NCBI GenBank assembly: GCA_965234725.1
Contig: CBDDUX010000072.1
Coordinates: 1-29,740 of the forward strand
Direction: 5' to 3'
Length of the DNA: 29,740 nucleotides
Source of the DNA: Thermoplasmatota archaeon
Lineage (GTDB): Archaea; Thermoplasmatota; Penumbrarchaeia; Penumbrarchaeales; Penumbrarchaeaceae
Below, one piece after another: positions 3,455 to 29,740 of the stretch. A model generated the notes under the pieces. It saw only the letters and a program-made list of their open reading frames with translations. It was not told the DNA's origin and did no database searches. The position numbers and the translations under genes are program-made. Within the stretch, counting starts at the first letter, position 1. Every line of letters starts with the position of its first letter.

Positions 3455-3470
3455 ATCAAGCTCTCCATGC

Positions 3471-7049: not shown

Positions 7050-7101
7050 TTTTTCACGATATCCGGCAGATATAATATTCATCTCCTCGATACAATATCT
7101 G

Positions 7102-8673: not shown

Positions 8674-8766
8674 TCCATATCGTGTGAATAATATTTTATC
8701 ACCTTTGCCATAACCGAAGAAAGTGGAACAAATATGATACTATGAAACATGCTGCGGTGATCGATC

Positions 8767-9603
8767 TTGTCCAGAAGGAGAAAGAGCAGGGAAAAAAGAA
8801 AGAAAGGTCCTTCCAGGCAGACCGGGAAAGGTAATAAAACCGGGACCGGGGAAATTGTGAGAAGAAATGAAACAGACCGACTTCTCGATAACGCCCACTC
8901 CTTATCTTCGATAGAGAAAAAGAGGAAAGAGATCCATAAAAAAATGATCGAGCGCTCCGGATTCATTGACGACGGCAACTTCAACTCAATAGCTCCTGCC
9001 GATGTCAAATTGATGTTCCAATTATACGATGAGATATTTCTGGGGAATTACATCAATGATAACTATCCCGACAGGATCATGTTCAAGCTTTCAAGGAGAA
9101 TGACCCGCTCCGGTGGAAAGACCGAGTACCATTCGAACAGAGATATCTATGTTATCACACTGTCAAGTACTCTTCTCTTTCAGTCGTTCAATGGTGAAGG
9201 CAGGGATATCACCCTCTGCGGGATCGTCTGCAAGGATCGGCTGGAGGCTGCGATGGTGATAATGGAACATGAGATTGTACATCTCATCGAATATGTTCTG
9301 TATGGTGATACAAACTGCTCAAGCCGACGCTATCTGTCCCTCGGAAGCAGGATATTCGGACATACCGATGTAAGGCACCAGCTCGTAACCGGAAGAGAGG
9401 TTGCTGACAAAGAATACGGTCTGAAAGTTAGTGACAGAGTATCATTCGAATTCAAGGGCGAGATCAGGAAAGGTGTGATCTCCAGAATAACGAAGAGAGC
9501 CACAGTTATGGTGGAAGATCCGAAGGGGTATTACAAGGACCTGAGCGGTAAGAATTATACCAAGTACTACATTCCTATGGGTCACCTGAAAAAAACAAGT
9601 TGA
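8767..9603 (+). CDS. SprT-like zinc metalloprotease with a C-terminal KOW/SH3-like segment
   Basis: SRRMTRSGGKT and HEIVH (HExxH) with downstream C/H residues; C-terminal LKVSDRVSFEFKGEIRKGVISRI; GGTGA RBS before TTG. Confidence 0.75.
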   Translation: MSRRRKSREKRKKGPSRQTGKGNKTGTGEIVRRNETDRLLDNAHSLSSIEKKRKEIHKKMIERSGFIDDGNFNSIAPADVKLMFQLYDEIFLGNYINDNYPDRIMFKLSRRMTRSGGKTEYHSNRDIYVITLSSTLLFQSFNGEGRDITLCGIVCKDRLEAAMVIMEHEIVHLIEYVLYGDTNCSSRRYLSLGSRIFGHTDVRHQLVTGREVADKEYGLKVSDRVSFEFKGEIRKGVISRITKRATVMVEDPKGYYKDLSGKNYTKYYIPMGHLKKTS

Positions 9604-9676
9604 TTCCATCCTGAATCACAACACCATCTAATCAGTGCCGTCGTGATTTTTAAGTATCATGATAATATGGGAAAAG

Positions 9677-11611: not shown

Positions 11612-11650
11612 ACCGTCACCTCCTTGATCAAGGTTATCCTGGTATATTTC

Positions 11651-12937
11651 TCATAATAACGACCAGTAAAGTTCTCCGAATAACTTAACTCTCGCTCTCA
11701 TCTTGATATTCTGATCCCCCGTACGGCGGGCCAAGTTATAAGCATGCATCTTTTCCCGGAATTCTTCCCGAAGATCATCCACTTCTTCCTCAATATCTTC
11801 AAAACCGGTTGTTAAACCCCTTGATTCCAGGAACCTGTAAAACTCCAGTATTGCATTCAAACTGCCGTCGAATATTTCATCGTTGATATCTCCTGTCTTG
11901 ATGATCAACCTGGCCAGGAAACGGTCCATCGAAGATTCGATCTCCGTAATGTCCGAATAGAGCAGGTTATAATCAAAGACCACATCTTCAAACATTTTCA
12001 GAGCATAGGATAATGTGAAGAACATGTCGTATCTTTCAAGATAGGTTTTGAAATCGTCACCGGCTAATTCATGACGGAATGCTTTCATCAATGACAAATT
12101 GTAGGACCTCCGTTCCCTATCCACCCCTTCGTAGTCCTCTTCTTCCTCCATCCTTTTTACAGCATCGTAATCATAACTGTTCAATAGGAATGATATCCAG
12201 TCATTCAGATCATTGTCCATCATTGGATTACATGCCTTGAGATTCCCCTGTGCGGTTCGGTCCTCGGGGTCTTTTTTAACAGCTCTTTCGAGCAATTCCT
12301 TTGCCGAGGACAACTCTCCTCTGGTCAATCTGATCCAACCCAGATCCGATAATCTATTACTGCTGTCCGGTGTGATCAATACGGCTTTTTTGGCATTCTC
12401 AAGGGCACGGTCGAGATCGTTGATGTAGTAACAGCAATTTGCTATGTCACTGTGGGCCGCGGATATTGATGCATCATCAACATCCAGGTCCAGGATCATT
12501 TCATAATAATCAATGGCTTCCCGGTAGCAAAAATAAGTCTCAAGGTTCTGGCATACGGAGTTGATCGTATCCTTGATCTCTTCTGATTCAACATTTCGGT
12601 CCCTCATGATCTTAAGACCCTTGTCCAGGTCCTTTCTGGTCTCTTGAAGTTTTCCCTTTGTCATTAGCTGCATGCCGTGGTCAAGGATTGAAGGATAGAA
12701 ATCCGGACATCCGGCAATGATCTTCTCCAGCCTTTCGATCCTATTTTTCTTTGATGCAATTTCCTCAAAGGGAAGGGTCACACCCATCTGGAGCATTTCA
12801 TGTTCCATCGCGGCCTCTTCCCATGTAATTTGAGTTTTATCTTGATCCGATCCCGGGTCCTTCTTGTTCAGGCAGCATTTCTTGTACTTCTTCCCCGAGC
12901 CGCAAGGGCAGGGTTCGTTCCTTCCTATCTTCATCAT
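11651..12937 (-). CDS. SEC-C motif and TPR-repeat protein
   Basis: N-terminal IGRNEPCPCGSGKKYKKCC; TPR-like helices such as LGWIRLTRGELSSAKELLERAVKKDPED. Confidence 0.85.
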   Translation of the reverse strand: MMKIGRNEPCPCGSGKKYKKCCLNKKDPGSDQDKTQITWEEAAMEHEMLQMGVTLPFEEIASKKNRIERLEKIIAGCPDFYPSILDHGMQLMTKGKLQETRKDLDKGLKIMRDRNVESEEIKDTINSVCQNLETYFCYREAIDYYEMILDLDVDDASISAAHSDIANCCYYINDLDRALENAKKAVLITPDSSNRLSDLGWIRLTRGELSSAKELLERAVKKDPEDRTAQGNLKACNPMMDNDLNDWISFLLNSYDYDAVKRMEEEEDYEGVDRERRSYNLSLMKAFRHELAGDDFKTYLERYDMFFTLSYALKMFEDVVFDYNLLYSDITEIESSMDRFLARLIIKTGDINDEIFDGSLNAILEFYRFLESRGLTTGFEDIEEEVDDLREEFREKMHAYNLARRTGDQNIKMRARVKLFGELYWSLL

Positions 12938-13249
12938 ATTCCTGATATCATTGAAGGTAGTTGGTTGTTTCCAACGCGTTGAAGTTTGTTTGGATCTCCC
13001 TGTTTCTCTTTTTCAGCTAATGGATCCTATAACTTCTCAACACTGTTGTATACGAGAGTATTGTACCACTTCTAAACCTGTATCGTCTCAAGGAGAGTTC
13101 AAATGAGGCCTCAAATGGGGCTCCCCCTGTCAAGACATTTTCGAGACCTCTGAGGACCAGTAAAAAGGCAAAAATCAAGGACCAGTTACCCCCCAGAAAA
13201 TCGAGGTAATCCTGCAGAATTAGTGGTAATGACAATATACTTTCCAGTA

Positions 13250-13277
13250 GTCTACTCTAAAGTAGACAGTTATAAAT
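13250..13277 (+). promoter_or_regulatory. Palindromic operator next to the TATA box of the ATPase gene
   Basis: GTCTACT-ctaa-AGTAGAC (13250-13267), then TTATAAAT (13270-13277), about 24 nt before ATG 13301. Confidence 0.6.
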
Positions 13278-13300
13278 ATCTATGATTCCTATTCAAAGAT

Positions 13301-14689
13301 ATGTTCGTCAACAGAACAAAGGAACTCTCATGGCTCGAAGAAAGATACAAGAAAGGGGAATCCGAGTTCATCGTGGTCTATGGGAAAAGGAGGGTGGGAA
13401 AAACCGAATTGATGAAGCAATTCTTCAAGGAAAGACCGCACATATTCTATCTGGCAGACAAGAGGTCCTCTCAGGAGCAATTGAAGGATGCATCCGCAAT
13501 CATCGGCCGGTATTTCGAGGAGAAATTCCTGGAATTTCGGGATTGGTCCGAAATACTGGAATATCTTGCGACCAGAGATAAAAGGATCGTTCTGGTGATC
13601 GACGAGTTCTCGTATCTTATGGAAAACGATCCCGCCATACCCTCGATCTTCCAGAAAGGTTGGGATATGCATCTCAAGAATTCAAGGGTGTTCATGATGG
13701 TATGCGGGTCCTCAATTGGGATGATGGAAAGACATGTATTAGGGTATAAGAGTCCACTTTACGGCAGGAGAACGGGGCAGATCCACCTGAAACCCATGAA
13801 ACCCGATGCAATGGCAGAATACTTTCCGGGCATTGATGTTGAAAGGTTCATTGAATTTTACAGCATACTTGGAGGCATCCCTGCTTACTGGAGATTCTTC
13901 GATCCAAAAATCTCTGCGATGGAGAACATAAAAAGATATATCTTCAACAAGGAAGAACCTCTATACGGAGAGGTTGATTTCGTTCTCCGGGAAGAATTCA
14001 GAGAACCAAGGAACTATTTCAGCATCCTCAGAGCAATCTCCTTTGGAAAGACCAGACTCAACGATATAGTTCAAGAGACAGGATTGGACCGGGGGCTGGT
14101 GTCAAAATATCTTTCAGTCCTAAGGGAACTGCATGTAGTGGTAAAGGAGGTCCCCGTTACGGAGAGAGATCTGGAGAGATCAAGGAAGGGTCTTTACAGG
14201 ATCCAGGAGAACTTATTCAGGTTCTGGTTCCGTTTTGTTCATCCCAACAGAAACTACATTGAAGAGGGAAGACCCGACATCCCGATCAATGAAGACCTCA
14301 AACAGAATCTGAACCTCTTTATTTCCTCCGAGTTCGAGAACATTTGCCGAGAATCATTATGGAATATCGATTTGCCAGTTACCTTCAATAAGCTCGGAAA
14401 GTGGTGGCAGGGCGAAGAAGAGTTGGATATAGTTGGATTGAACGAGAAGACAAATGATATCCTGTTCGCAGAATGCAAGTGGAGAAATCGAAGGACCGGG
14501 ATGGAAGTTGCGAAGGAACTGCTAAAAAAGAGCGAAAAGGTTGCTTGGCGAAACGATGACAGAAAAGAACATTTCATCCTTTTCTCCAGATCGGGATTTA
14601 CCACTTCTTGCAGCGATTTCTGTAATGAAAATAACATAGCGATGTTCGACCTCGAAGATGTCGGAAAAAGTTTTAATATAAACCGATGA
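13301..14689 (+). CDS. Archaeal AAA+ ATPase (ATPase_2/DUF234) with wHTH and C-terminal PD-(D/E)xK nuclease-like domain
   Basis: MFVNRTKEL, Walker A YGKRRVGKT, Walker B LVIDEF, SPLYGRRT, FRFWFRFV, ELDIVG...LFAECKW. Confidence 0.9.
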   Translation: MFVNRTKELSWLEERYKKGESEFIVVYGKRRVGKTELMKQFFKERPHIFYLADKRSSQEQLKDASAIIGRYFEEKFLEFRDWSEILEYLATRDKRIVLVIDEFSYLMENDPAIPSIFQKGWDMHLKNSRVFMMVCGSSIGMMERHVLGYKSPLYGRRTGQIHLKPMKPDAMAEYFPGIDVERFIEFYSILGGIPAYWRFFDPKISAMENIKRYIFNKEEPLYGEVDFVLREEFREPRNYFSILRAISFGKTRLNDIVQETGLDRGLVSKYLSVLRELHVVVKEVPVTERDLERSRKGLYRIQENLFRFWFRFVHPNRNYIEEGRPDIPINEDLKQNLNLFISSEFENICRESLWNIDLPVTFNKLGKWWQGEEELDIVGLNEKTNDILFAECKWRNRRTGMEVAKELLKKSEKVAWRNDDRKEHFILFSRSGFTTSCSDFCNENNIAMFDLEDVGKSFNINR

Positions 14690-14801
14690 TACATTCATGA
14701 ATTAATCCATGCTTCATCTTGAAACATCCTCCATAATATGGATGGTCACATGTGAAATCATCTTCTGTTACAATATGTTAAAGACTTTAAGAAAAAGTAG
14801 T

Positions 14802-14992
14802 GAAGCCCCTTCCGACGCATTAAAAGGGGCTTCTTTTTCTTCTTGGTCCGAATCTCTTCTTTCCATCATCCGCTTAGAAATCTTTTCTCGAAAAGGGGTT
14901 TTTCGGAGCATTTTCCAGATCATTTGACTTAACTAGATAAACCCCGTCCCCGACACTTATCATTCTATAATATTAGATATATTGTATATTAT
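14802..14992 (+). repeat. Composite repeat copy 3: arm A2 (14802-14945) plus arm C (14946-about 14992)
   Basis: Left part matches 5036-5179; right part GTCCCCGACACTT...TTAG.TAT..ATTG.ATATTAT matches 18124-18166. Confidence 0.95.
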
Positions 14993-14994
14993 TT

Positions 14995-15639
14995 TTAATG
15001 TTTATCTTTGTTTTGTCCTTGACACTTCCCTTTGAATAATAATATTGCTAATACTATGATCCAAATGAAGTAGGTATAAACATTGATCCTCTCGATCAAT
15101 CCCATATATTCTTCCCAATTTGCAATCACAATTGGACTCATTCCACCCGAAATTACAAGGATACCCACCGTGATGAATGTAAAGTTCCTGAACTTCTTTA
15201 AATTGTACTTCCTTTTCATTCCAATCCCGATCAATATCAGTGCTGGGAAGATCATAATCACTGATAATTCGATGAGAACAAGATGCATAGTACCTGGAAA
15301 GGTTGCCTCAGTTCCTACTGGATCCATTGGAAATATCGTTGTTGTTAATGTTGTGCAAATTGACATCACCAAAAGGAGTACGCCTCCAAGGAAGATCAGC
15401 TTGTTTTCTTTGAACTTGTGATTTGAAATGATGTTGATACCAAAAACGATCCCCATGAACGATGAGGAGACCAATATTAAGCTGAAAAGAAGTCTATGGT
15501 CAGATCCTGACTCGCTCAATTCGCTAATGGCATTTGAAACGAAATTGTACCCTGGATAAATGATATGACCTAGGATGTCTGCAAGAAGGTATGAGAGAGT
15601 GGAACCGATCCCTGCCAGGTAAAAATATTTATTATTCAT
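14995..15639 (-). CDS. DUF998 family membrane protein
   Basis: YPGYNFVSNAISELS, FPMDP, GTMH and GLIERI motifs; several transmembrane helices. Confidence 0.85.
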   Translation of the reverse strand: MNNKYFYLAGIGSTLSYLLADILGHIIYPGYNFVSNAISELSESGSDHRLLFSLILVSSSFMGIVFGINIISNHKFKENKLIFLGGVLLLVMSICTTLTTTIFPMDPVGTEATFPGTMHLVLIELSVIMIFPALILIGIGMKRKYNLKKFRNFTFITVGILVISGGMSPIVIANWEEYMGLIERINVYTYFIWIIVLAILLFKGKCQGQNKDKH

Positions 15640-15663
15640 GATTAACCTCTTTTATGAAATATA

Positions 15664-15996
15664 TCATTTCAATTGGCTAAGTATCTTTTGAAAATTCTTG
15701 TAGGGTAGAGAGAGGTGTCCTTCATTTTCCATGAACTTCGATATCAGGGGGCTAATCAAGTAAAGTTCTTTTTTCTTGAATGTTGATAAACCCACCCCAG
15801 GTCTATCGATCGCTATCAACCTGACTCCAACTTTTTCCGATATCTCACCTGCCTTTAACATGATTGGATTTAACCTGCTTCCGGGGAATCCATGGAAGTA
15901 GAGAATTGGGAATCCCTTCGGCTCACAGTACTCTGCATATCCGACTTTTCTTCCCGACTCAAGATCTATGACCTTGTTCTGTTTTTCATTTCCCAT
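15664..15996 (-). pseudogene. Alpha/beta hydrolase remnant (frameshift, nonsense codon, large internal deletion)
   Basis: N-terminal YFHGFPGSR...DRPGVGLS is followed closely by C-terminal NEGHLSL; no GxSxG; the shifted frame reads KRTLLD*PPDIE. Confidence 0.8.
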
Positions 15997-16042
15997 TTCC
16001 CTACCTCAGGATTGAATGCCGACTGTTTTGCTAAACATTTTG

Positions 16043-16822
16043 TTACGGGGACTTAATTCCCTTGATCAACAAGTATCCGCAAAATCCGAATTCTCCAATG
16101 ATCTCGAGTCCATACCCAGGCAAAGTTATCACCTCGGGAGCCCCTGGTATGAGGAAGAACACAAATGTCTCCAATAGGAACCCGAAGCAAGCTAATACTA
16201 ACAGCACCCCGAATGCTTTTGGGAAGTTTTCTGACTTGTATACCAGGATCCCTAGAGGAAGAAGCCATAGTCCATGGAATATCGTCGCGATCATTACACC
16301 AGCCTCTCTGAATTCGAGGATAGTCATAACCACTGAATTTAACTGTTCCGTGCTGAATATTGATAGATGTTCGCCCCCATTCAGAAGAACCAGTGGAGCA
16401 ATATGAAAGAGCATATTGATCAGCATTACTGGAACACTGACCAGAACGAAAACCACCACCAAGGTAGCAAGGTTCTTATCGAGTTTGTTGAGTAATTTGT
16501 AGAACGCTAATGGTAATAGCATGAAACAAATGATCATAAGAATATCACTTGTGAAGCTTAACCGGTAAAGCCACTCTGAATCCTTGATATTATCTGCTGT
16601 AGCTGTAGCATCTCCAGAAACTATCAAATTCATTCGGATAACCTGTGCTATAATACCGAACACTATGAGGCCAAGATAGAGCAATCCTGCAATTCTTGCA
16701 ACCTTTCGCTTTGATTTCACCGTTTCGGCATTTGTGATCTCCCTTCCATCATTTTTCGATATAATTTCATTCTTCTTCACAATGCTCGGATTTGATTTTT
16801 TTTCAACCATATTCATCACCAT
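16043..16822 (-). CDS. DUF4386 family membrane protein
   Basis: ARIAGLLYL, GDATATADNI, IFHGLWLLPLGILVYKSENFPKAFG; clearly related to 1359-2108. Confidence 0.85.
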   Translation of the reverse strand: MVMNMVEKKSNPSIVKKNEIISKNDGREITNAETVKSKRKVARIAGLLYLGLIVFGIIAQVIRMNLIVSGDATATADNIKDSEWLYRLSFTSDILMIICFMLLPLAFYKLLNKLDKNLATLVVVFVLVSVPVMLINMLFHIAPLVLLNGGEHLSIFSTEQLNSVVMTILEFREAGVMIATIFHGLWLLPLGILVYKSENFPKAFGVLLVLACFGFLLETFVFFLIPGAPEVITLPGYGLEIIGEFGFCGYLLIKGIKSP

Positions 16823-16826
16823 AATT

Positions 16827-17435
16827 CTAAACGAGTTTCATACCCAATTTTTCGGCTCTTTGATAATAATCCTGTAGATCTTTATGCCATACATCACCCG
16901 CATATAGCTCCCCAACGGTATCTGCGTTCAATGAATCCTTGATTACTCCTTTGATCTGTGGAGTGGCCCAATTACAAAATCTCTTGAATTTCGAGGGGAT
17001 CATTCCTGAAACAGCAATTATAACAGCTTTTCTTTTCTTTTCAGATCTGGGAGCTGGACACCCCTTTACTATGACATAACTTTTTTCTGGTTTAGCAAAG
17101 GTCCAGCATATCCTTTCAAGGAATGTCATCATCAATGCTGAAGCATAACCCATATGGATCGGAGTTCCCATGATCAGAGCATCAGCTTTCAGAAGCTCCT
17201 CGTTGATTTTGTCCATATCATCTCTTATCACACATTTTGCCAGAGGCCCATCAGTATCACTTCTCCAACACGCAAGGCAATCCCTGCAATAATCGATCTT
17301 CTTCTCAGAGAGAAAGAACTTCTCTACAACGGCATTCTGATCTTTCTTCTTCACTCCTTCTATGGCCTTATCAATAAGTGTATCAGTATTCTTTCCTTTT
17401 CTAGGACTTCCAACAATTGCTACTACATTCATCAC
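16827..17435 (-). CDS. Iron-sulfur flavoprotein / FMN reductase family protein
   Basis: VAIVGSPRKGKNT, CRDCLAC...CVIRDDM, ADALIMGTP...MMTFLERI. Confidence 0.9.
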   Translation of the reverse strand: MMNVVAIVGSPRKGKNTDTLIDKAIEGVKKKDQNAVVEKFFLSEKKIDYCRDCLACWRSDTDGPLAKCVIRDDMDKINEELLKADALIMGTPIHMGYASALMMTFLERICWTFAKPEKSYVIVKGCPAPRSEKKRKAVIIAVSGMIPSKFKRFCNWATPQIKGVIKDSLNADTVGELYAGDVWHKDLQDYYQRAEKLGMKLV

Positions 17436-17926
17436 TATCCCTCCTCATTGAAATTGTTTTGAAGGTGATCAACCAACCGTTGTACGAATCCATTGAATTG
17501 TTGGATTTCTTTATCAGAATAGATCTCGAAGATCTTGAAGATCAAATATTCATGCTCTTCCAATCTTGATTCCCAGTAATCCCAGTTCTTTTGGGTGGTT
17601 CTCAACCTAAGTACTCTCTTATCATCCTCATCTTTCTCTATCGAAACGAATCCCCTACTTTGAAGTCTTGTTGCAGTTTCCTTAACACTTTGATGTGATG
17701 TGGAAGTTTTCTTGGAGACTTCTTTGATCGATGGTGCATGGTCGAAAGATTCTATTGAAGCAATTAGCAAGAACTGCTTTATTGTTAGTTCATCCTTCTT
17801 AAGCGCCCTATTGCTAATGCTCTCAAGCTTGAGACTTTGCAGGAATATGTTCGTGAATAGATGATCGATCTCATCGCGAACCTTTTTGTTTTCTCTTCTC
17901 TGAATAGGTTCGTTATTTTGTTGCAT
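17435..17926 (-). CDS. MarR family transcriptional regulator
   Basis: LTIKQFLLI...PSIKEVS...TSHQSVK...LQSRGFV....DEDDKRVLRL winged helix. Confidence 0.9.
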   Translation of the reverse strand: MQQNNEPIQRRENKKVRDEIDHLFTNIFLQSLKLESISNRALKKDELTIKQFLLIASIESFDHAPSIKEVSKKTSTSHQSVKETATRLQSRGFVSIEKDEDDKRVLRLRTTQKNWDYWESRLEEHEYLIFKIFEIYSDKEIQQFNGFVQRLVDHLQNNFNEEG

Positions 17927-17930
17927 AAGA

Positions 17931-17984
17931 ATAGGTAACTCCTTACCTATATTTATAACCTTCTAATAGGTAAGTCCTTACCCT
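17931..17984 (-). promoter_or_regulatory. MarR promoter: TATA box flanked by two palindromic operators
   Basis: ATAGGTAA-ctcc-TTACCTAT (17931-17950) and ATAGGTAA-gtcc-TTACCCT (17966-17984) flank minus-strand TTATAAAT (17951-17958). Confidence 0.8.
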
Positions 17985-18006
17985 TCAGTCATTATGGAAT
18001 AGATAT

Positions 18007-18190
18007 GGGCCTCCGAAGAGGCCCTTTTCCTCAATCCAGTTAAATCTCTCTCAAATGCATCCAGAAGAGATTCTTTCATTTTGGGGGTCGTTTTTGACAA
18101 TTTTGAGTACGTTTTCAAACCCTGTCCCCGACACTTTTCATAATTTAGGTATTTATTGCATATTATATGGCTATTTTTAGGTGTCGGGTT
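18007..18190 (+). repeat. Composite repeat copy 4: arm A1 (18007-18123) plus arm C (18124-about 18190)
   Basis: Hairpin GGGCCTC-cgaa-GAGGCCC; ATTCTTTCATTTT and TTTTGAGTACGTTTTCAAACCC match copies 1 and 5; GTCCCCGACACTT matches copy 3. Confidence 0.9.
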
Positions 18191-18210
18191 CCAATAACGT
18201 ACCCGTCACC

Positions 18211-21200
18211 TCATTCTTTTCCTTCTAGGTCCTCGATCTGTTCGTGAATGTAGTCTTTCAACTCAGAAGTTGTCAAACCTTCTTCATCCTTTTCAGGAGC
18301 AGGAATTCCATATAGATCCTCATAGGAAGGAGCACTGGATTCCTTTTCTTTTGCAAGAGCAGCTCTCTCTTCCTCTTCTTTCTTGCGAGCAGCTTCATCC
18401 ATTTTCTTCTTCATTTTGAATAATAAGAAGATTCCTAAAGCAAGAAGGATGATCACTACAGCAATGATGATTATCATGAACAATGACGATGATGAACTCT
18501 CAGCTTTACCCACTTCTATCTCGAAGGTTGCAGTATTTGTTTCAATTCCATCTGTAACCTCAACAGTAACTGTATGGAGCATCACCTGATTGTCTTTCGG
18601 TGTCCACCTTATCATGCCTGTCTCATCACTGATCGTCATCCCATCTGGAGCTTCAGCCAATGAATATCTCAAATTGGAAAGGTCCTCCGAATCCTGATCT
18701 GTGCAGGAGATCTTGAATTTGAAATTAGTTACAGCTGAGATCTTCTGGTCCTCAATGGTCTTGAATGTAGGTTTGTAGTTGACCCTGAATGACATCACTC
18801 CTGAAGTGCATAAACCGTCAGAACAACCGTCATTTGGGATAACTGTCCAGAAGTAAGTCTTTCCTGGATCCAGATCTGAGAGAGTGATGTTTGTACCATC
18901 GTATTCTTCTTCATAGATGGCCTCTTCTCGATATCCCTGGACATAAACCTCTGTTTGGTGAAGATATATGTCGTAAGTAATTGATTCTCCTTCAGGATCT
19001 ATACCTTCCCAGCTGAGAATAGCACCGGTAGAAGCTCCTTTTTCACCATCTCCAGGACCAATTAACTCCACCTCCGGGGGTTCAGAAGCTAATACTGTGA
19101 TAGTGAAGGTCCTATTGGTAAATGCAAGTCCATCCCAGGCTGATACAATTACTTCAAGTTTGAACGGAGCTTTATCGAAAATATGGATGTCAGCTGTCCA
19201 GTTTATTTGTCCGGTATCTTCATCAATTGTAATATCGGAATCCGGTGCGGATGAAACGGAATAATATGTTGTATCTCCATCATAATCCGTAGCGTTCACA
19301 TCGAAGAGATATGTTTTTCCATGAACAATATTTATATTTTCAGGAAAATCTACCCAGGCAGGTCTATCATTGACGTTTAGAACCTCCAATGTGAAGTTAT
19401 GGAAATCGAACTCATCCGAAAGGTCCCAGACTGAAACGTTTACGAAGTAGGACCCAACATCCATTGGTCCTGGATTTCCGGACAGTGTTCCCATTTCATA
19501 ATCGATTGAAAGGAAGCCAGCATCGGTATGGAGTTTCCATTTGATCTCATCTCCGGAATCGATTTCAAGAGCTTGATAATTTCTGAGGAATGGATCGTCT
19601 TGATACACTGACATGGTGTCATTTGTAATGATTACTGGAGGGTCGTTAACATCTAATACCTTGATATCGAACTGTCTTGAATCCCAACCCTCATTTCCGT
19701 CATGTACAGATACAGTGACTGTTACCGTTCCTACATCTTCATTTGTAGGTGATCCCTTCAGAATACCGGAGTGAGAATCCATTGTGAGCCATTCAGCATT
19801 CGAGGAGAGGTAATAAGTCACATTGCCTTGCCCATCATCATCACATTTGTAATCTGTCTCGTAATACTCCCCTTGATTGATCTCAGTGATGTCAGTTCCA
19901 AAAAGGTTCGGGTTGGTATTCGAGACAAATATCCTGAACTTGTGAGATGAGAAATGTCCTTCTGTATCTGTCAGGTTCAATTCAACGGTCGTCAGTCCTA
20001 CCTCTGTATTATCTGGTGTCCCGTATAGTTCCTTTGTTCCTTGGTCGAACTGGAGCCAATCCATGTCGGTCCTTAATGTCCAGGTTGGATTAGTCACCCA
20101 TCCAAAGTTCCAGTATGCTTCTCGATATTCAATATCTTCATAAGCGGTTTTATTATCCTGGAAAGGTCGAATTTGGACTGGAGTATGAACTTTGAAAATA
20201 TCACTTTTTAATGGATTCCTCACGGAGGTTGCCGTGATGTTCTCGAACCAGAGCATACTAGTTGAAATATTCAGATTCCCAACATACAATCCCGTATTGA
20301 TCCCTGTCTCTCTGCAAACGATCAGCGGGGAGAAACTCAAGTTATTATCACTGGACAGGTTTAGGAATGCCTTATCCCGAAGAAGTGGATTAGCATCATC
20401 TCCTGTGATTGCGAAGTATGCAGTCTCTCCATAATCCAATATTTCAGTGGTAGTCGTCAGGCCTTCATCTTCATAGACCGTTACTGAACCCACAGTTGTT
20501 GGTCTGAAGGGATAGTCGATCACAATGTCGATATCGAATGATGGGCCCGCTTTGGGATAAATATTTGTAACGTCGAAATAAATAGATCTAGGTGGGATTA
20601 TGAACTGCCCACGATAGACACCAGTGTTCAATCCTGTCTCCCTCAATCTGATCTTACTCAATCCAATCGGACTGGATTGGTATGTGATATTGATAGTTGC
20701 CAAATCCTGATGTGTCGCATTTCCATCTTCGCCGGTTAATTCCAAGTAAAGTGTTTGTCCGATGTCAAATGTTCTGGATGGATTTGAATAAGGTTCAGTG
20801 TAGATCTCGAATGTATCTACCCTGGTTGGTTCGTAGTTTAACATCCCTGTCACGAAATAGATCTTTCCACCACCATTTCCTCCCTCATCATTGTTTCTGG
20901 CTCCAACAATTATGTCTTCCATTCCATCCCCGTTGATATCTCCTTGTATCTCCAAAGCAGTCCCAAATCTATCTCCTGGAAATTCTCCAACAATGGTACT
21001 ATCAGCAATCGAAATATTTGCATTTGTAGGCCACCCACTTGTTCTTCCGTTGATGATATATACCTTCCCACGGTTCTCTCCCTGATAGTCAAATTGATTG
21101 CTGCAGACTACGATCTCATCTAATCCATCTCCATCTATATCTTCCAGGAAGTCTATGTCTAGTCCCAAAGAATCTCGATCATCCTCACCTAAATAGGATG

Positions 21201-22383
21201 CATCTGCATTAGATAGTGAGGTATCCATTGACAACCCTGTTTCTTTCCCAAGGATCAAATAGAACTTCCCATCAAAATCCATCCCGGGTGAATCCCAAGA
21301 ATTTGCGCCGATCAGGATATCGTCATATCCATCTCCATTTACATCTCCTCCACCGGCCAATCCATTCCCAATATAATCGAGATATTGGGTATCTTCTTCA
21401 ACAAAAGAAGCATCGGCATTTGAAAGAGATGTTCCATAGGACCAACCAGATGATTTACCCAGTATCAAGTAAATCTCCCCCCTGTCAGGAACTCCCATGC
21501 CTTGGGATCCATATGGGGCACCGATCAAAAAATCACCATATCCATCACCGTTCACATCCCCAGCTGAAGCCATGTTGTTCCCCACTCTTTGACCCTGGCC
21601 AGTTTCTCTGACGAAGGAAGCATCAGCGGTATTAATTGGTGTATTTTGGGACCAAATATTCGATTTTCCCAGAAATAAAAATGCTTCTCCGTCCTGATAG
21701 GGGGCCCCGATGAGTATGTCATCATATCCATCATTGTTCACATCCCCTGCTCCTGCTACAGTTGATCCCAAACGGATGGCTGAACTTGGAACAAAAGTTG
21801 CATCTGCATTTGACAAACTAACATCCTTTGCCCAATTCTGGGTCGGCTTCCCAAGAATAAGGTAGACCTTTCCCCAATAACTATTGATATTGTAATCTCC
21901 GATCAAGATGTCATCATAACCATCGTCATTGACATCTCCAACTATCTCAACACTGCATCCTGCCATACCATCAGGATCTTCACCAATGAAGGATGCATCA
22001 GTATCTGAGACATTCAATCCGATATCAAGAGAACCACTTCCGAAATAGACGTAGATCTTACCACCATCTACTCCATCGTGATTGTAGCTTGGTAATCCTA
22101 TCACAAGATCGTCAAATCCATCTCCGTTCACATCACCAGAATTTGACATCTGAGGTGCTGTGTAGAATCCTCCCCCACTATTGCTCCCAATTCTACTTCC
22201 AGGAAAGCCTAGAAGTGATCCTTCGGCAAGATCACTGATGTTCTGGTTCAGATCTCCCCTACCATTGTGATTGAATTTCAGAGGAGAATTTACCCCTTTT
22301 AAATTACTTGAATAAACACCAGGTAAAGGTAGGATTAAAGTTAGCAACAATACTATTGCCCAAACTTGGATGGATTTTTTCAC
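18211..22383 (-). CDS. Membrane-anchored surface protein: FG-GAP (integrin-alpha-like) propeller plus cadherin/He_PIG-like Ig repeats
   Basis: Signal peptide after GTG 22383; seven GDVNGDGxDD-type repeats; Ig repeats (V.DVNDPP, GxLxGxP...DVG); C-terminal transmembrane helix and charged tail. Confidence 0.9.
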   Translation of the reverse strand: MKKSIQVWAIVLLLTLILPLPGVYSSNLKGVNSPLKFNHNGRGDLNQNISDLAEGSLLGFPGSRIGSNSGGGFYTAPQMSNSGDVNGDGFDDLVIGLPSYNHDGVDGGKIYVYFGSGSLDIGLNVSDTDASFIGEDPDGMAGCSVEIVGDVNDDGYDDILIGDYNINSYWGKVYLILGKPTQNWAKDVSLSNADATFVPSSAIRLGSTVAGAGDVNNDGYDDILIGAPYQDGEAFLFLGKSNIWSQNTPINTADASFVRETGQGQRVGNNMASAGDVNGDGYGDFLIGAPYGSQGMGVPDRGEIYLILGKSSGWSYGTSLSNADASFVEEDTQYLDYIGNGLAGGGDVNGDGYDDILIGANSWDSPGMDFDGKFYLILGKETGLSMDTSLSNADASYLGEDDRDSLGLDIDFLEDIDGDGLDEIVVCSNQFDYQGENRGKVYIINGRTSGWPTNANISIADSTIVGEFPGDRFGTALEIQGDINGDGMEDIIVGARNNDEGGNGGGKIYFVTGMLNYEPTRVDTFEIYTEPYSNPSRTFDIGQTLYLELTGEDGNATHQDLATINITYQSSPIGLSKIRLRETGLNTGVYRGQFIIPPRSIYFDVTNIYPKAGPSFDIDIVIDYPFRPTTVGSVTVYEDEGLTTTTEILDYGETAYFAITGDDANPLLRDKAFLNLSSDNNLSFSPLIVCRETGINTGLYVGNLNISTSMLWFENITATSVRNPLKSDIFKVHTPVQIRPFQDNKTAYEDIEYREAYWNFGWVTNPTWTLRTDMDWLQFDQGTKELYGTPDNTEVGLTTVELNLTDTEGHFSSHKFRIFVSNTNPNLFGTDITEINQGEYYETDYKCDDDGQGNVTYYLSSNAEWLTMDSHSGILKGSPTNEDVGTVTVTVSVHDGNEGWDSRQFDIKVLDVNDPPVIITNDTMSVYQDDPFLRNYQALEIDSGDEIKWKLHTDAGFLSIDYEMGTLSGNPGPMDVGSYFVNVSVWDLSDEFDFHNFTLEVLNVNDRPAWVDFPENINIVHGKTYLFDVNATDYDGDTTYYSVSSAPDSDITIDEDTGQINWTADIHIFDKAPFKLEVIVSAWDGLAFTNRTFTITVLASEPPEVELIGPGDGEKGASTGAILSWEGIDPEGESITYDIYLHQTEVYVQGYREEAIYEEEYDGTNITLSDLDPGKTYFWTVIPNDGCSDGLCTSGVMSFRVNYKPTFKTIEDQKISAVTNFKFKISCTDQDSEDLSNLRYSLAEAPDGMTISDETGMIRWTPKDNQVMLHTVTVEVTDGIETNTATFEIEVGKAESSSSSLFMIIIIAVVIILLALGIFLLFKMKKKMDEAARKKEEEERAALAKEKESSAPSYEDLYGIPAPEKDEEGLTTSELKDYIHEQIEDLEGKE

Positions 22384-22642
22384 TTCATTACCCCCTATTG
22401 GAAAACCAGGGCCCCCATTGCCCATCGATAAAGGAAAATGGAGAAATCTCAACCATTTCCTTACATCCAATAAATGCAATTCCGAATTATAACTGTTTCG
22501 TTTAATTTAATAGAAATAATGTATTATTGTTAATATAAATGTTGTTAGATGATAATTTATATGATTCATGGTTTATAAATCTCAACTCGCGTTAATATAG
22601 CTAAAAAGAATTTCTCCTGCTATTTCAGATTAAGGCTAGATG

Positions 22643-22945
22643 TAGGCCCTATAAGGGGTCCTATTCCTTTTGCTCCTGATCATCTCTCTGAAGGCATTTC
22701 AGAGAAATTCTTTCATTTTCGATATCATTTTTAACAGTTTTGAGGCTGTTTTCAAACCCCGATCTACCAAATTTGGGATAGTTTTACGACACCATTAACA
22801 TGGTTATTCGACACAATAGGGCTAGAACACGACAGGATTGTGAATACTGGACCAGATATGAATAGATATGTTGGTATGATAATTAAAGGAATATAATTCT
22901 GTGATGAAGCCTGAATTAGCCCAAAATGTTTGGTGGGCCAGGTCG
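22643..22945 (+). repeat. Composite repeat copy 5: arm A1 (22643-22760) plus arm B (22761-22945)
   Basis: Colinear with 250-535; starts with hairpin TAGGCCCT-ataa-GGGGTCCTA; core AAACCCC at 22754-22760; ends TGGTGGGCCAGGTCG. Confidence 0.95.
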
Positions 22946-22996
22946 TTCCTCCTCAAAGATCGTTATTCCTCAATTGTGATCATCTCGATTATTCAA

Positions 22997-25900
22997 TCAT
23001 TCCTCCGAGATCGCCCCCCCTCCCTCCGCTTTTTTCCTCAGAACGAAGAACACGACCCCAATACCGAGCAGTACAAGGATCATGAGTAGGGACCCTACGA
23101 TGATTGCGAGGGTATGATCTGATTCCTTGGGTTCATCGATCTCCACGGGGATCAATGGAGGGATCGATCCCGTGAGTTTCCCGTCCTCTACGATGGTGGT
23201 GTTGAATATTATGGTATGATATCCCTCGGCTTGCACGGTGATCGTGAGGTTTGTACTTTTCAGTTCATTGGAGAGATCAAGGGAGGTGTGGCCCGAAGTA
23301 TCGGTTGCATTGGAGAAACCGAACATTCCGAAGTTCAGATGGACATCTGCGCCGGGGACGGGATCTCCGGACTCGTCGATCACCGGTCCGATCTCCAGCG
23401 TGAAGAAACCGATTTCATTCCTCATGCCCGTTATCGCGAACGCGGATAAATGGTTCACAACAGCCCATACATATCCCGCATAATCGATCCCGTGGACGGA
23501 CTGGTCCGTCGTGTCCACCCCGGTGGCGAACACCTCCTCTTCTTCCTCCGATAGTCTGTTCCAGGTTCCCTTTTCGAAGACATACAGTCTGAGTGTGGAT
23601 TCGTTAAGATCATAGGGATCGTCATTGTCTCCGTCTCCGTTCATGTCAAGATCCTCCGATCTGTAGTAGATCAAAAACTCGATCTGGGAGATGTTTCGAT
23701 CCTCGATTCTGTTCCCGTCATCAGCCGTCACGTTGATCTCCGTATACCTTCCAAAAGGTACCTCGTCCGGTCCCATCCCGTTTCTGAACGAGAGGGGATC
23801 AACACCTTCGATTGATGAGGATCTGGATATCGTCAACTCCACGGATATGTTCGCATTCAATCTGCAGAGAACGTTGGCATCGGTCTCCCTCACTACCTCG
23901 TAGTAGTCCACCTGGACGAAGTTTTGTGGGCTCAGGTAATCCGCAACGACCCTTCCGTCCTCCACGATCATCCGGACATTACGGAAAATGCTCAGGACCC
24001 TGTTGTGATCGAACGGGCGCGGATCCGAGAGAAGCACGATGGTCTGTTCTCTCTTCCAGACCCCGTATCTCAGGACGCATCTCCCTGAAGTAGTATTCAT
24101 ATCGGAAATGAGGTTCTCATTACCATCGAGAAGATCGCGGATGATCATCCCTGCCGTGCTGTTCTCCGTGGAAGGTTTTGCGACGATGACAATCAAACTT
24201 CTATTGGTGTAATCGGAGAGAAGCTCGCCCGGTGTTACCTCTAAAACGTCAACACTGCCCGACAGGTTCTGAAGGAACCATTTATTCCTCTCCCCCTCAT
24301 CCACGACCACCACGATCTCCTCCCCCAAATCGATGCTGAAGTCGTAATCGAACAGGTCCCCAATCCCGTCGCCGTCGGAATCCCCGGACCGGGGATTGTA
24401 ACCGACCTCAAGCTCCCTTGAGTCCACCATTCCGTCCTCGTCGGTGTCGTTGTTCCCGGGGTTCAAGAACATCCGCACCTCGAACCCGTCCTTCAGCTGA
24501 TCCCCGTCGCTGTCCTCGTTGACAGCGGATGTGTTGTAGATCTTCTCGTATCCGTCGTCGATCCCATCTTGGTCAAAGTCCGAATCAGACGGACTGCATC
24601 CTATCTGGACCTCCTCCCCGTCGAACATCATGTCCCCGTCCCCGTCGGGAGATGTCGGATCCAATCCCATCTTCCACTCTTCGAAATCGGATAATCCGTC
24701 ATCGTCGGTATCATCGTCGTTGGGATTTGTCCCCATCTCGAATTCGATATTATCCGAAAGCCCCTCTCCATCGGTATCGTTGAGGAGCGGATCGCTCCCG
24801 AAGATCAACTCGATCCCGTCGTCAAGATCGTCCAGATCCGTATCATATGAGGCGGGATCGGTCCCCAACACAACCTCCTCGAGATCCGGAATCGTGTCCT
24901 CGTCCGTGTCGAAATGGGAAGGATCCATTCCCAGATCGTATTCCTCGCTGTCCGATAATCCGTCGAAGTCCGAGTCCGCAAGATTGATGTTCGAAACCAC
25001 ATGTCTCGTTTCTACCCCCAAGGGGAGTGTAACGTTTATTTCCCATCCTTCTTCCTCTACAACATCAAAGAGACCGTCCCCGTCGGTATCTTCATATGTA
25101 TAGTTCTTTTCTATCTTGTGGATGATGATATTTTCCCAGAACCTGGCGATCCGTCCGATGGTGGCCCCTGTGTCGGTCATTCCGCTTACGTAAATATTGC
25201 GGTCAACACCGGAACATATGGACTTCTCCCAGACGTTCACCGGCCACTCGACCCTCAACCTTCGATATTTGTCATATTTCTGTATCCCGTCGTTGTCGCC
25301 CCCGTCCCAGCATATGAAGAGGCTGTCCTCCCCGCCGATCCATATGTCGGTTGCGGTCCCGAATTCCGAAATCTCCCAGACCCAGCTTAGGTTGAAATCC
25401 TGATCGAATACTTGTATCCTGTGGTTGCCCGGATCGAGAACGTATATCCTGCCCTTGCTGTCGATGTCGATGGAATTATCATCGCCAACAAGAAACTGTC
25501 CGGGGAGGTCCCCGGTGGGATATTCGTTCGATAAAAGAACTGTGCCGTTCGATGCGAATTTAACCAGGAAAGGACAGACAATATCCGCATACCCGAACGA
25601 GTAGACATTGCCGGCATCATCCGTCGCTAGTGCCATCGCATCGCTGAAATCCGTTCTATCATGATCATGCCAGGTCCCGTTCAGGGTTCCGTTTGCTTCG
25701 AGGATGAAAATCACATTCACATCCGGATAGTCAAAGGCATGGTAACGACCGACGTATATCTTTCCGTCCGGGCCTATTGCCAGTGATTTCAGGTTGTACA
25801 GTGACTCGTTATGGTATTCCCATATGAGTTCTCCGTCCGGTCCGAGCTTGATAACCGAATCATTGAATCCGCTTATCATGTACATGTTCCCATCGGAGTC

Positions 25901-28900
25901 ACATACGATATCGACGCAGTCGGGGATCCCGTAGGGCTCGTCGTCTCCGATGGTATCGATGTATTCCATATCGGAAGTCGTATAATCCACAAGCTCATCC
26001 GCGATCCCGTTGCCGTCGGTATCCGCGGAGATCGGATTCAATAAACAGAGATACTCAACGGTGTCGTTCAGACCGTCTCCGTCCGTATCTGGTGATTTCG
26101 GATCGGATGCGATGTGCCATTCAAAGGGATGGCCGTAATAGGTGAAATTGATGATCCACCCCTCTAGCTCCTTATGGTCCGATAAACCATCTCCGTCGGT
26201 ATCATCGTTATCGGGATCAAGTCCGGAAAGCAACTCCTTCTTATCCCATATGCCGTCCCGGTCCATATCGTGATCGACCGGATTGTATCCGATGTCCAGT
26301 TCGTACCCGTCGCCCAGACCGTCCCCGTCGGAATCCCAGTTCCACGGACTGGTATCCAACTCATCCGAATTGTTCAGGTTGTCCCCGTCGTAGTCGGAAT
26401 GTTTTAGGTAGGTCCAGGTTCCGAACTCGTCGATCGTCTCGGGAAGGATATCATAGTACAGCGTCTTCGTGCTCAACAAATCCGACCCGGAATCGCTCTT
26501 AGGTTTGAACGGGATCAGCCCCCAGAAGAGGTGCTCCTGGAAATACATGTTGTAGTCCATCTTCAGATTGAGAGCGAATTCGTAGTTGACCTTGGCAATA
26601 CCAGGGACTATCCACGCACCGGACTCGTAGTGCGTCTCTTTCGTATCACCGTCGTTGGAGGCATAGATCTCGGTGGAGAAATTTCCCTTTGTAAGCTTTC
26701 TCTTTCCGTCATCCCCCACCACGGGTGAAGTTATGTAATATTCCGGTCTGATGTAGGAATTCCTGAGATGATCCGATGTTCCGTGGGCTTCTCTTGTCAC
26801 GATTGTGTCCCATACGCTCGAGTACTCTATCCTGTCCCCTGCATCCAGTCCGTTCTTCTTATTGTCATGAATAACGATCTGACAACCCTCCATCTCCATG
26901 TCCAGACTGGTCAGGGTGCGGACGCCCGCGATCAGATCGATTATCCAGGTGATGATCCACTCCGATCCGCTCTTACCGGTGATCAATCCCACGATTAGTT
27001 CCTCGAGCGCATATAGTAGCCCGACGATCGCCGCGATCACACCGATGATCACACCGGCGATCTGGCCCCCGACGGGGATCGCCTGAAGTCCGAGTATAAT
27101 CGCGAGTATCGATACGAACAGCCCGACACCCAACAGTGCAGTGATCCATGAGAAGGCCAGGACGCCGTATATGGTGGTGATCGTGATCCCGAAAGGATCG
27201 TTTCCCACGGAGCTGTACATGGCAACGAGATTGAATATCAGTATGGTCAGATCAATAGCGTATGCTATGACGTCCACGGCGATTCCGATCCCGGTCAGGG
27301 TATTCGTGATCGCCTTTCCCCAGACTTTTCCGGTTTCGAACGTCTTGAACAGGAACTTCACGCCGTTCCATGTTCCCTTGATCACCTCGACCATGAATGC
27401 ACTGCTTGTCCAGAACATCTTTATGGAATAGTGTATGAATTCAAGGGCGGGTACGATGAAATCCCTGACGAAGCATATGATTAACATGGTGGGTGTGGTG
27501 ATTATTCCCATGATATTGGCTACGGTTGAAGCCCAGTGTTTTGTCACTCCATCGAGGACATTCTCTCCTTCCCGAACGACCCGTATCTCTCCTGTGTTCC
27601 AGAAGAGAAACATGCCGAGCATCAATGATGCGTTCTCGTCATCGAGGTCCGAAAGAAGCGGCATGATCTCCTCCACGAACGAAGAGGCCTCTATTGGTTC
27701 GGTATTCGGTTTTTCATACCAGTTCGATCTCATCATGCGGGTCGTTACCACAGGTGTTTCCGAGAGATTTCCTCGGAATGTGGCCCCATCGATCATCGAC
27801 AGGTACATCAGGTCCATCGACGCGCTGTGGTCCTCCATCAAAACAGTGATTGAGTATTTGCCGTTCTCGGGAAGGGATTCAAGAGCTTCCTTGGTCATTC
27901 CGTTCATGCAGTCCCGCACGGCAGGATCCAGGTGGGAGTATCCTTCTATCATGTGTTCGGGAAAAATCTCGTTCTCGCCCAGGAAGTCAGCGATCTCGTT
28001 GAGATTCAGGGAATGATTTCTCATGAACCCCGCCGAGAAGAGCATGTTAGCCGACATCATCTCTTTCGTGTCCTCGGAGTAGAACAGGCCGATATCGGTT
28101 CCGTGGTTCTCCGTCACGACAAGGCTGGCAATGGTGAATTCTTCATCATAAGTGATCAGGGTTGTGCTGCTTGTTCTGACATCTCCTTCTTCTATCGTGA
28201 GCAAACTGCCCGCTGGTCCCGAGTCCTCGGCTTTTAAGCTTCCGTCTCCCTGTTCCTTGATGAACCTGTCATCGCCTGTTTTAAGATAATGAAGATCGCC
28301 TGACTCGACAAGGGTGAATATGCAGGGATCTTCCATTTTCGGGAAACCCGAAGTCATAACTCTATCCTGATCGATGCCGACGTAATAGCCCTCCATCGTG
28401 CGCATGGCTACCCTGTCGTCATCTATCTTCTCCCAGGTGAATCTCTGGGGTTCGGAGATCTCGGTGGAATTGGCCTTGACCTTTCCGGCATCCATTGAGG
28501 TCAGATATTTCCCATCAGATGTCTTCAGGGTCCTCACTTCAGCATCTGTGATTCCAGTGACGACCCATTTCAAGCCAATCTCAAGGTTAAGATCCGTCGT
28601 ACCGACCGAGGGAGGAAAATATATCTTTCCACCGAGCGCGACAATACGCCCGTATTCCCATACAGGATTGAGTGGCAACGTCGCGCTTCCATTTCCGACC
28701 TTCATCCCGTATTCGACAACCTCATCCTGATCGAGGTAGATATTGCTTTTCATCTCTATGACTGGGGTCACCAACACATCTTCGGTCGAGTTGTCAAGGT
28801 CCTTCATGATACCCTTGTCATCGAACGGCCAGTCCATGGTATCGAACAGCAGTCTCATGTTGGATGGGTTCTTCGGTCTTATCTGGAGGGAGACATACAT

Positions 28901-29431: not shown

Positions 29432-29740
29432 AAAATCACCTCGAATCGGGAACTATCAAGATATAATTTTTATCGAGACCTGAAATATTTCCCCCCATCT
29501 GTTTGATTTCGTAGATCATCCTGTATGCGGGATGATTTCTCCTTCCAGATTCCCGTGAGAATATTATGCTATAATTGTCTAAATAGTATAACAATCTCCC
29601 AAATATAATTTATTTTCGTATTGAATAGAAAGATCACCAGCAAGTTCATCATTTTTCTCACCAAGATATTTTAATAAAGATTTTGTATTTTTGTACCCCT
29701 TTAGGAAGATTGAAAGGGTTAAGAGAGCAAGTTTTAAATA

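Follow-up and report, generated by a model that had tools for sequence, protein, structure and literature searches.

A tandem array of units joined at tRNA-derived sites in a sediment Thermoplasmatota genome, probably an additive island of integrative-element descent

Tandem accretion of cis-mobilizable elements (CIMEs), following the ICESt1/ICESt3 model, has reportedly been described for integrative and conjugative element (ICE) families in Firmicutes, in work said to date from Pavlovic and colleagues in 2004. The attachment (att) sites of such elements have parallels in other groups. At the ssrA islands of Dehalococcoides, 28 direct repeats of the 3' end of the gene go with insertion in the T-loop, and 15 islands that lack an integration module have been proposed to be cis-mobilizable (McMurdie et al. 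2011, PMC3146451). The tycheposon islands of Prochlorococcus are additive and lie beside tRNA genes, one of them Met(cat) (Hackl et al., bioRxiv 10.1101/2020.12.28.424599), archaeal elements can integrate in tandem at one locus and then lose their integrase genes (Badel et al. 2021, PMC8371274), and the integrons described from archaea follow the classical IntI/attC scheme (Ghaly et al. 2022, PMC9668308). We found no description of an array like the one reported here in the literature on Thermoplasmatota, which was covered mostly as titles and abstract openings. The array lies on contig C72 of a Thermoplasmatota metagenome-bin genome (114 contigs, 3.54 Mb, 45% G+C); the whole contig, 29,740 bp, was analysed and is called the window below. 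It contains five joints at which a small set of flanking arms meets at a short common core. We think it probable that the window is a piece of an additive island, formed by tandem accretion of units derived from integrative elements at tRNA-derived att sites.

At each of the five joints (350, 5179, 14945, 18123 and 22760) a left arm, A1 or A2, meets a right arm, B or C, at the core AAACCCC(G), and all four arm combinations (A1/B, A2/B, A2/C and A1/C) occur. With S1 to S5 denoting the sequence between joints, the window reads ...A1 / B-S1-A2 / B-S2-A2 / C-S3-A1 / C-S4-A1 / B-S5.... All five joints are co-oriented, as are the sites within every other contig that has them, the cores being direct repeats. 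The two A2 copies (5036-5179 and 14802-14945) are 89.6% identical over 144 nt, or 87% over 157 nt by the repeat finder; the A1 copies at 279-350 and 22689-22760 are 86% identical over 72 nt; and the B copies at 351-535 and 22761-22945 are 86% identical over 183 nt, with 87% between 5183-5250 and 355-423. The third A1 copy (18052-18123) matched more weakly, at 67% ungapped and 90.6% across the final 32 nt. Gapped alignment showed that it is homologous, upstream hairpin included; the copies at 18052 and 22689 have a spacing of 4637. Arm C, GTCCCCGACACTT(A/T)TCAT, begins at 14946 and at 18124, and the segments 14939-14963 and 18117-18141 are 92% identical at a spacing of 3178. A first-pass annotation of this DNA had placed the arms and joints here, and repeat alignments recovered all five joints. 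The A2/B joint that it listed is indeed present, except that it has to be placed at 5179/5180, since the core G is missing there (TAAACCCC/ATCTAC).

A genome-wide motif search located TTCAAACCCCGTCCCCGACACC at the end of a gene on contig C75, and core plus arm C, AAACCCCGTCCCCGACAC(C), proved to match the last bases of that gene, a tRNA at C75:14887-15005. The tRNA was found by ARAGORN with introns allowed and scored 54.1 bits with the Rfam tRNA model; Rfam and tRNA scans of the window itself gave no match. ARAGORN labelled it Ser(aga) with a 43-nt intron, and labelled the orthologues in two of three relatives Met(cat), also with an intron. By eye, the anticodon loop reads CUCAUA and the intron lies at the canonical position; we therefore call the gene a CAU-anticodon tRNA, of either Met or Ile2. 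With A1 ending in TTCAAACCCC, the A1/C joint has 21 nt in common with the tRNA; with A2 ending in AAACCCC, the A2/C joint has about 18 nt; for arm B the shared sequence is only AAACCCCG. In local alignment against the C75 tRNA the A1/C joint scored 47, compared with 28 for the best of the shuffled queries. Judged from these matches, core plus arm C is a classical tRNA attachment site, provided by the CAU-anticodon tRNA gene. The first-pass annotation, which set the units against typical integron cassettes, had missed this origin; with core plus arm C identified as a tRNA 3' end, the array is to be read as a tRNA-att integrative-element island and not as a new, integron-like type of cassette.

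The sites are not confined to the window. We counted 28 on 10 contigs (C22, C44, C53, C72, C75, C85, C90, C92, C102 and C106), a tally that includes the tRNA itself and five sites whose cores are degenerate. The 17-mer AACCCCGTCCCCGACAC, with one mismatch allowed, occurs 14 times in the source genome (the same word read backwards, as a control, 0 times) and 0-4 times in other members of the family, including 2, 3 and 4 times in the congeners G001, G003 and G004. Further left-arm types (A3, A4 and A5) were present, as were long forms of A1 with a 50-nt hairpin insert. When each contig was read as a chain of [right arm, cargo, left arm], both ends were visible in 18 units. All five units that start with arm B end with A2, and the 13 that start with arm C end with A1 (9), A4 (2, both small, about 250-280 nt), A5 (1) or A2 (1). 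The association of start and end arms gave p = 0.0007 in Fisher's test, a value that overstates independence because the units share ancestry. Such units make up at least about 70 kb of the genome (five whole contigs).

The breakpoints coincide with the core. Arm C together with the 3' end of an FG-GAP gene, as found at 18124, recurs on contigs C92 and C53 and in congener G004, and across this set the left arm next to it is of four unrelated kinds (A1, A3, A4 and A2). The alignment of the four switches from unrelated to alignable exactly at ACCC(C/T)GTCCCC. Such breaks at the core bear out the earlier proposal that the joints are breakpoints of site-specific recombination. A second proposal, that the A2/B joint at 5035-5345 is an empty site, does not agree with the unit syntax: A2 and B are the two ends of B...A2 units in five of five cases, and A2/B at 5179 is thus the joint between two abutting units and not an empty allele. 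A real near-empty allele exists in a congener and is described below.

These observations suggest the following mechanism. Circular DNA units would insert repeatedly and site-specifically at sites originating in the 3' end of the CAU-anticodon tRNA, each with the form of a right (P') arm, cargo and a left (P) arm, and they would fall into two related families. In the C...A1 family, the putative circular joint A1/core/C would copy 17-21 nt of the T-loop, T-stem and acceptor end of the tRNA; in the B...A2 family, AAACCCC(G) alone would be shared with the tRNA. Strand exchange is expected to fall within the 7-8 bp AAACCCC(G), and wherever units abut, it would give the hybrid joints A1/B, A2/B, A2/C and A1/C. 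Insertion of two C...A1 circles into an A2/B joint, as the first-pass annotation had it, yields the arrangement found here. The window's own units would be decayed descendants of integrase-bearing elements or their integrase-less passengers and, if they still move, the recombinase must act in trans.

The repeats at the joints might be explained differently, if the junction modules themselves (left arm, core and arm B or C, about 250-330 bp) were the repeated entity, resembling miniature inverted-repeat transposable elements or repetitive extragenic palindromic sequences, or serving as terminator/promoter blocks, and the genes between them had never been mobile. A1/B does form an unbroken repeat of about 260 bp that the window contains twice (279-535 and 22689-22945, 86-89% identical), the A arms start with terminator-like hairpins and a T-run, and in G007, another relative, a proximal A2 is also joined to a different sequence. 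Nevertheless, independent modules would not be expected to have unit ends that are correlated across kilobases, B with A2 and C with A1, as the Fisher test indicated. The core is a tRNA 3' end, an integrase-bearing element with the same two arms exists, a whole unit is 99% identical in two species that have unrelated flanks (both described below), and a reading of the window joint sequences revealed no terminal inverted repeats or target-site duplications at the modules. We regard the module explanation as very improbable.

The G007 joint is as follows: on its contig C61 (2312-2460 and 15294-15470) the proximal part of A2, the hairpin plus about 95 nt, is joined to GTGGCCCCG(G/C)GTCGAGACC. The A2 hairpin block may be a module that can be used with more than one kind of joint. 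G007 was not counted as a second case of the B...A2 type, given that its distal A2 copy lacks a core and is joined to other sequence. In the long form of A1 (C75:15600-15800 and others) one minus-strand frame runs through the core without a stop (...VSGT(G/W)FENRLKTSRKSEIFLT...KRD...), and in the short form the reading frame is shifted relative to it. A1 was considered as coding sequence; no full-length gene with the long-form tail was found.

An autonomous element with this architecture was found in G009, which belongs to the same family and a different genus. The element (4.75 kb, contig C69) consists of the tRNA (complement 4773-4890), a core, three GAACCCCGAC-like repeats within about 70 nt, a tyrosine integrase gene (388 aa; PF00589, 125 bits) pointing towards the tRNA, with its stop codon nearest the repeats, four more open reading frames (ORFs), an arm homologous to A1 including the hairpin, and a second core. 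This architecture identifies A1 as the P arm, and C as the P' side, of a genuine integrative element. Together with many more C...A1 units in the source genome and in G004, it substantiates the earlier view that C...A1 represents a discrete insertable unit. C-terminal fragments of the integrase were present beside cores in G021 (56% identity, 82 aa) and in the array of G004 (61%, 28 aa); they show that the integrase has decayed in place.

Arm B contains the motifs CGACAC, CGACAC and CGACAG at regular spacing (B arm copy 3, Table 1), and arms of the C2 type have the same CGACAC-like motif, the first repeat being the tRNA acceptor end. Between B and C2, an equal-length stretch of 19 nt is replaced directly after the core G. 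Phased pairs of CGACAC-like motifs numbered 35 genome-wide, 12 of them in right arms; shuffled genomes gave 16-27 in total. The phased motifs are putative protein-binding repeats, for a recombinase or a helper protein.

One unit without an integrase has also passed between species. Over about 1.87 kb, the AbiE toxin-antitoxin unit at C106:12240-14112, which has no integrase gene, matches G004:C13:46556-48429 at 99% identity. The match begins precisely with the core and reaches into the A1 arm to about 19 nt short of the next core. The flanks are unrelated, the left neighbour being A1 in the source genome and an A2-like arm in G004. As a measure of background identity, C106:1-11400 is 72-81% identical to congener G003, and the gene for a multidomain acetyl-CoA carboxylase (ACC)-like protein is about 81% identical between the source genome and G004. 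On these alignments, the AbiE unit is an integrase-less unit exchanged between species. The ParE unit, another part of the cargo with toxin-antitoxin genes, comes first after the tRNA in the source genome and stands in the middle of the array in G004.

With the tRNA and the ACC-like gene as syntenic landmarks, the locus was seen to differ greatly in length among relatives. The two genes are 1.9 kb apart in G003, the near-empty allele mentioned above, where a single small unit of 192 nt separates them; the distance is 8.9 kb in G007 and reaches at least 16 kb in G004, with at least 10 A1-bearing joints. In the source genome the tRNA (C75) is followed by three units up to the contig end, and the ACC-like gene lies on a separate contig (C22), with an A1/C-type joint before it and a degenerate joint after it. 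Small units of 192-276 nt between two cores occur directly after the tRNA or within arrays in several family members (C75 15784-16036 in locus L003 and C85 11978-11703 in L004, also L012, L013, L014, L017 and L032). In these units the core is followed by a stem-loop and there is a GGGGTT(C/T)GAACC(C/T) motif that resembles a T-arm; each may be a tRNA-fragment relic or a small RNA.

The near-identity of the AbiE unit raises the question whether the array is an active, integron-like capture platform, in which integrase-less units are routinely excised, reshuffled and exchanged by a recombinase acting in trans, either a Xer-like enzyme or one supplied by visiting elements. Several observations agree with such a platform. 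Arm copies are far more alike (86-97% for A2) than their unrelated cargo, the AbiE unit is nearly identical in species whose other sequence differs by about 19%, units of one type stand beside different neighbours in the source genome and in G004, and the cargo includes toxin-antitoxin pairs (ParE and AbiE), as does that of chromosomal integrons. Like an integron, the array consists of gene units each with its own recombination site, and a Xer-related recombinase stands at the edge of some arrays. The recombinase belongs to a three-gene module, present on C44 and C102 (about 85% identical), that encodes a 173-aa protein, a 310-aa Xer-like tyrosine recombinase (162.8 bits with NF040815, below the cut-off of 220) and a protein of 177/179 aa. 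Each module lies between an A2/B(-like) joint and a tRNA-Thr gene, and its genes read towards the core; in both fully visible copies the recombinase gene is 0.8-1.8 kb from the joint, a layout that matches the G009 element. The source genome, which has these recombinases, contains 14 core copies, compared with a maximum of 4 in any relative.

Other results argue against an active platform. The Xer module was also found next to tRNA-Thr in G005 and G015, with a pseudogene of the 173-aa protein in G008, and was not found in G001, G003, G004 and G007, even though the first three have 2, 3 and 4 core copies and G004 has an array. The recombinase gene stands beside tRNA-Thr at five of five loci (perhaps representing only 4 genomes), and this constant neighbour means that it may serve a different element. 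Degenerate cores and integrase remnants beside cores point to decay, and the run contigs considered below showed no circle or excision form. Features that define integrons were not found either. The integron-integrase model TIGR02249 scored 54.8 bits, against a cut-off of 265, on the Xer-like enzyme, the only nearby type of recombinase; six junction stretches folded as single-stranded DNA gave z-scores of -0.21 to -1.48, with no hairpin spanning the core as in an attC site; and GTTRRRY is absent from the joints, as read in the window. Unlike integron cassettes, the units have a site that comes from a tRNA 3' end, are several kilobases long with several genes, and lie in either orientation. Taken together, the evidence makes an active platform of this kind unlikely. 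A broader proposition, that some Thermoplasmata have a working, tRNA-anchored gene-capture system analogous to integrons but independent of them, in which multi-kb units without integrase retain full attP-like arms, two arm families are made compatible by the 7-8 bp core and recombinases in trans excise, reorder and exchange units between species, we consider doubtful.

The Xer-like recombinase is a candidate enzyme for the B family, and might act at the AAACCCC(G) sites, at tRNA-Thr, or at both. A third homologue of the 173-aa protein adjoins tRNA-Thr(tgt) on C20 (53-668), and no partial tRNA-Thr repeats that delimit the Xer module were found in the genome. The gene for the 173-aa protein, which is of unknown family, is located directly downstream of all three tRNA-Thr genes of the source genome. 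At 4200-4550 of C369 in G005 (locus L021), a duplicate of the promoter region and the first 29 nt of tRNA-Thr(ggt) lies 235 nt upstream of the intact gene.

Several results count against tandem accretion of element-derived units at tRNA-derived sites. The unit at C44:16371-19450 breaks the syntax, with a C-like start arm and an A2 end. A full integrase of the G009 type was found in only one of 37 genomes of the class (E<=1e-25), G009 itself, and tblastn (E<=1e-3) found none in the source genome. Local alignment of four B-type joints against every tRNA gave scores of 19-22, no better than shuffled queries (mean 20.2, maximum 28), and a primary chromosomal target was not found for the B...A2 family. 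The A1 copy adjoining the ACC-like gene of G004 was lost by an imprecise deletion and not at the core. The one public run that contains the sequence, a marine sediment metagenome available as assembled contigs and with 94% of the sampled words of the window, showed no circular or excised joints in those contigs. Finally, in metagenome-bin genomes the order of contigs inside the island is not fixed and chimeras at joints are conceivable; assembly chimeras are unlikely here because the arm copies differ by about 10%.

Some of the candidates that we considered were set aside. By-eye resemblance had suggested that arm B comes from tRNA-Thr, an idea dropped once the alignment scores fell within the shuffled range. 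A precise empty site beside the ACC-like gene of G004 was excluded by the imprecise A1 deletion. The joints in contigs of the sediment run (for example 14903 to 5176, 14957 to 18148 and 18106 to 14939) have intervening letters that match or point to other arm copies (such as those on C85 and C53); explained by other genomic repeat copies, they are uninformative on excision. Two viral contigs matched the 18-mer core, one inside a coding region and the other in bacteriophage-like sequence with a peptidoglycan hydrolase, and neither had arms. The single metagenome contig that matched the B-arm pattern had no arm similarity and was taken as a chance match.

Compared with the described systems, the locus exemplifies, in an archaeon and on an unusually large and orderly scale, the known process of accretion at a tRNA-derived att site. 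As in Dehalococcoides, many tandem islands lie downstream of one small-RNA gene and the sequence adjacent to the repeats is also conserved; there the integration module is next to attL on the reverse strand, and the layout here is similar. The Dehalococcoides islands differ in being bacterial, with a transfer-messenger RNA target and a large serine recombinase (CcrB-like), whereas the present host is archaeal, its target is a CAU-anticodon tRNA, and the integrase of the relative is a tyrosine enzyme. The present array has, in addition, two arm families that share 7-8 bp, hybrid joints, and a spread over 10 contigs that include tRNA-Thr loci. The likeness to tycheposon islands lies in the partial tRNA copies between stacked elements, the rarity and transience of integrase-bearing elements and the large share of material without integrase. 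Most material in those islands, however, has no clear boundaries, and in the present array almost all units are still delimited by two conserved arms of about 80-185 nt; the host is archaeal and the cargo mainly giant surface proteins, toxin-antitoxin pairs and regulators. The passages of Badel et al. (PMC8371274) considered here describe a few stacked elements, compared with dozens of integrase-less units with conserved arms in the present case. The units resemble CIMEs in being flanked by att sites, in lacking recombination genes, in standing in tandem with relatives and in needing a cognate integrase from elsewhere; they differ in that no cognate autonomous C...A1 element is present in this assembly and in that the array is much longer. 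What is unusual here is the compatibility of two arm families through a 7-8 bp core and the exchange of an integrase-less unit between species.

Features of the window, with the loci of the Xer module, are listed in Table 1. Units S1 to S4 have att-type joints on both sides; the whole units are 3.2-9.8 kb long, multi-gene, and present in both orientations. All called cargo ORFs of S3 and S4 are on the minus strand, as the first-pass annotation had noted. No match to recombinase families was obtained among the 19 window ORFs scanned. The encoded proteins look archaeal and include HTH_10, ATPase_2/DUF234 and Lrp-type regulators, and the closest named record found with one of them is a Thermoplasmata metagenome-assembled genome. 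By eye, a minus-strand ORF that begins near 27 leaves the window at the left contig end, in line with the first-pass prediction of another C-cargo-A1 cassette to the left. S1, S3 and S5 have no close counterpart in five relatives, S3 lacking homologues there at E<=1e-20, and homologues of S2 genes are present but scattered in G003 and G007.

Table 1. Arms, cores and units of the window (contig C72), and Xer-module loci elsewhere in the source genome
Feature	Position	Strand	Remarks
A1 arm copy 1 (P-arm type 1)	262..350	+	core AAACCCC at 344-350
B arm copy 1 (P'-arm type 2)	351..535	+	degenerate CGACAC-like motifs
A2 arm copy 1 (P-arm type 2)	5036..5179	+	GC-rich hairpin and T-run 5036-5075; AAACCCC end
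B arm copy 2	5180..5345	+	core G missing; CGACAC at 5206, 5227; CGACAG at ~5248
A2 arm copy 2	14802..14945	+	
Core and arm C, AAACCCCGTCCCCGACAC	14939..14956	+	identical to tRNA 3' end, C75:14887-15005
A1 arm copy 2	18007..18123	+	hairpin 18007-18024; core with one change, AAACCCT
Core and arm C, tRNA 3'-end copy	18117..18134	+	1 mismatch; right arm to ~18200, includes inverted GGTGTCGGG
A1 arm copy 3	22643..22760	+	hairpin ~22643-22663
B arm copy 3	22761..22945	+	CGACAC at 22787, 22809; CGACAG at 22830; 21-22 nt phasing
Unit S1, B...cargo...A2	351..5179	.	HTH_10, DUF4386, tandem Lrp/AsnC-type regulator, two unknown ORFs, FMN_red
Unit S2, B...cargo...A2	5180..14945	.	PRiA4_ORF3, DEAD/ResIII helicase, SprT-like, 644-aa unknown, SEC-C/TPR, ATPase_2/DUF234
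Unit S3, C...cargo...A1	14946..18123	-	operon: MarR, FMN_red, DUF4386, hydrolase fragment, DUF998
Unit S4, C...cargo...A1	18124..22760	-	single gene for 1422-aa FG-GAP/He_PIG surface protein
Unit S5, incomplete, B start	22761..29740	.	minus-strand gene for 2144-aa surface protein; meets contig end before far arm
Xer-module locus L001 (C44:5000-24000)	14667..16808		
Xer-module locus L005 (C102)	5401..8345		

The cargo of S1 (582-5096) and S3 (14995-17926) includes paralogous gene sets, namely a DUF4386 membrane protein, an NADPH-dependent FMN reductase and winged-helix regulators, despite the different arm families of the two units. The giant Fascin-domain surface protein encoded at 22997-29431 (2144 aa) is 43% identical over its full length to that encoded at C44:9681-16049 (2122 aa), and the two genes have opposite orientations relative to the adjoining B arm. 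In the sediment run, pieces of S2 (5150-14853) had about 1.6-2 times the word depth of S3, S4 and S5 (14929-23500), at about 1900-2080 versus 1000-1260; a second copy or strain heterogeneity could explain the excess, contig depth being a poor measure. The last 50 or so nt of the contig (29689-29740) are repeated at 92-100% identity in 13 other contigs, including C5, C9, C22, C28, C35, C47, C108 and C109, mostly at their ends. It is probably the terminal repeat of an insertion sequence present in many copies, at which the assembly breaks.

The flexible gene sets of uncultured sediment Thermoplasmata are large, above all in giant surface proteins, and their source has been unclear; the locus offers a testable route by which they could be acquired. 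It supplies a defined core, two arm families, the autonomous element of G009 as a reference and a nearly identical unit in two species. If units were still moved in trans, the array would work like a tRNA-based integron, and such exchange, if real, would give the cell swappable giant surface proteins, toxin-antitoxin or defence genes, and regulators; if they are not moved, the locus is a clear archaeal case of island growth by accretion and loss of integrases. In either case, the sites are useful as markers of flexible regions in these metagenome bins.

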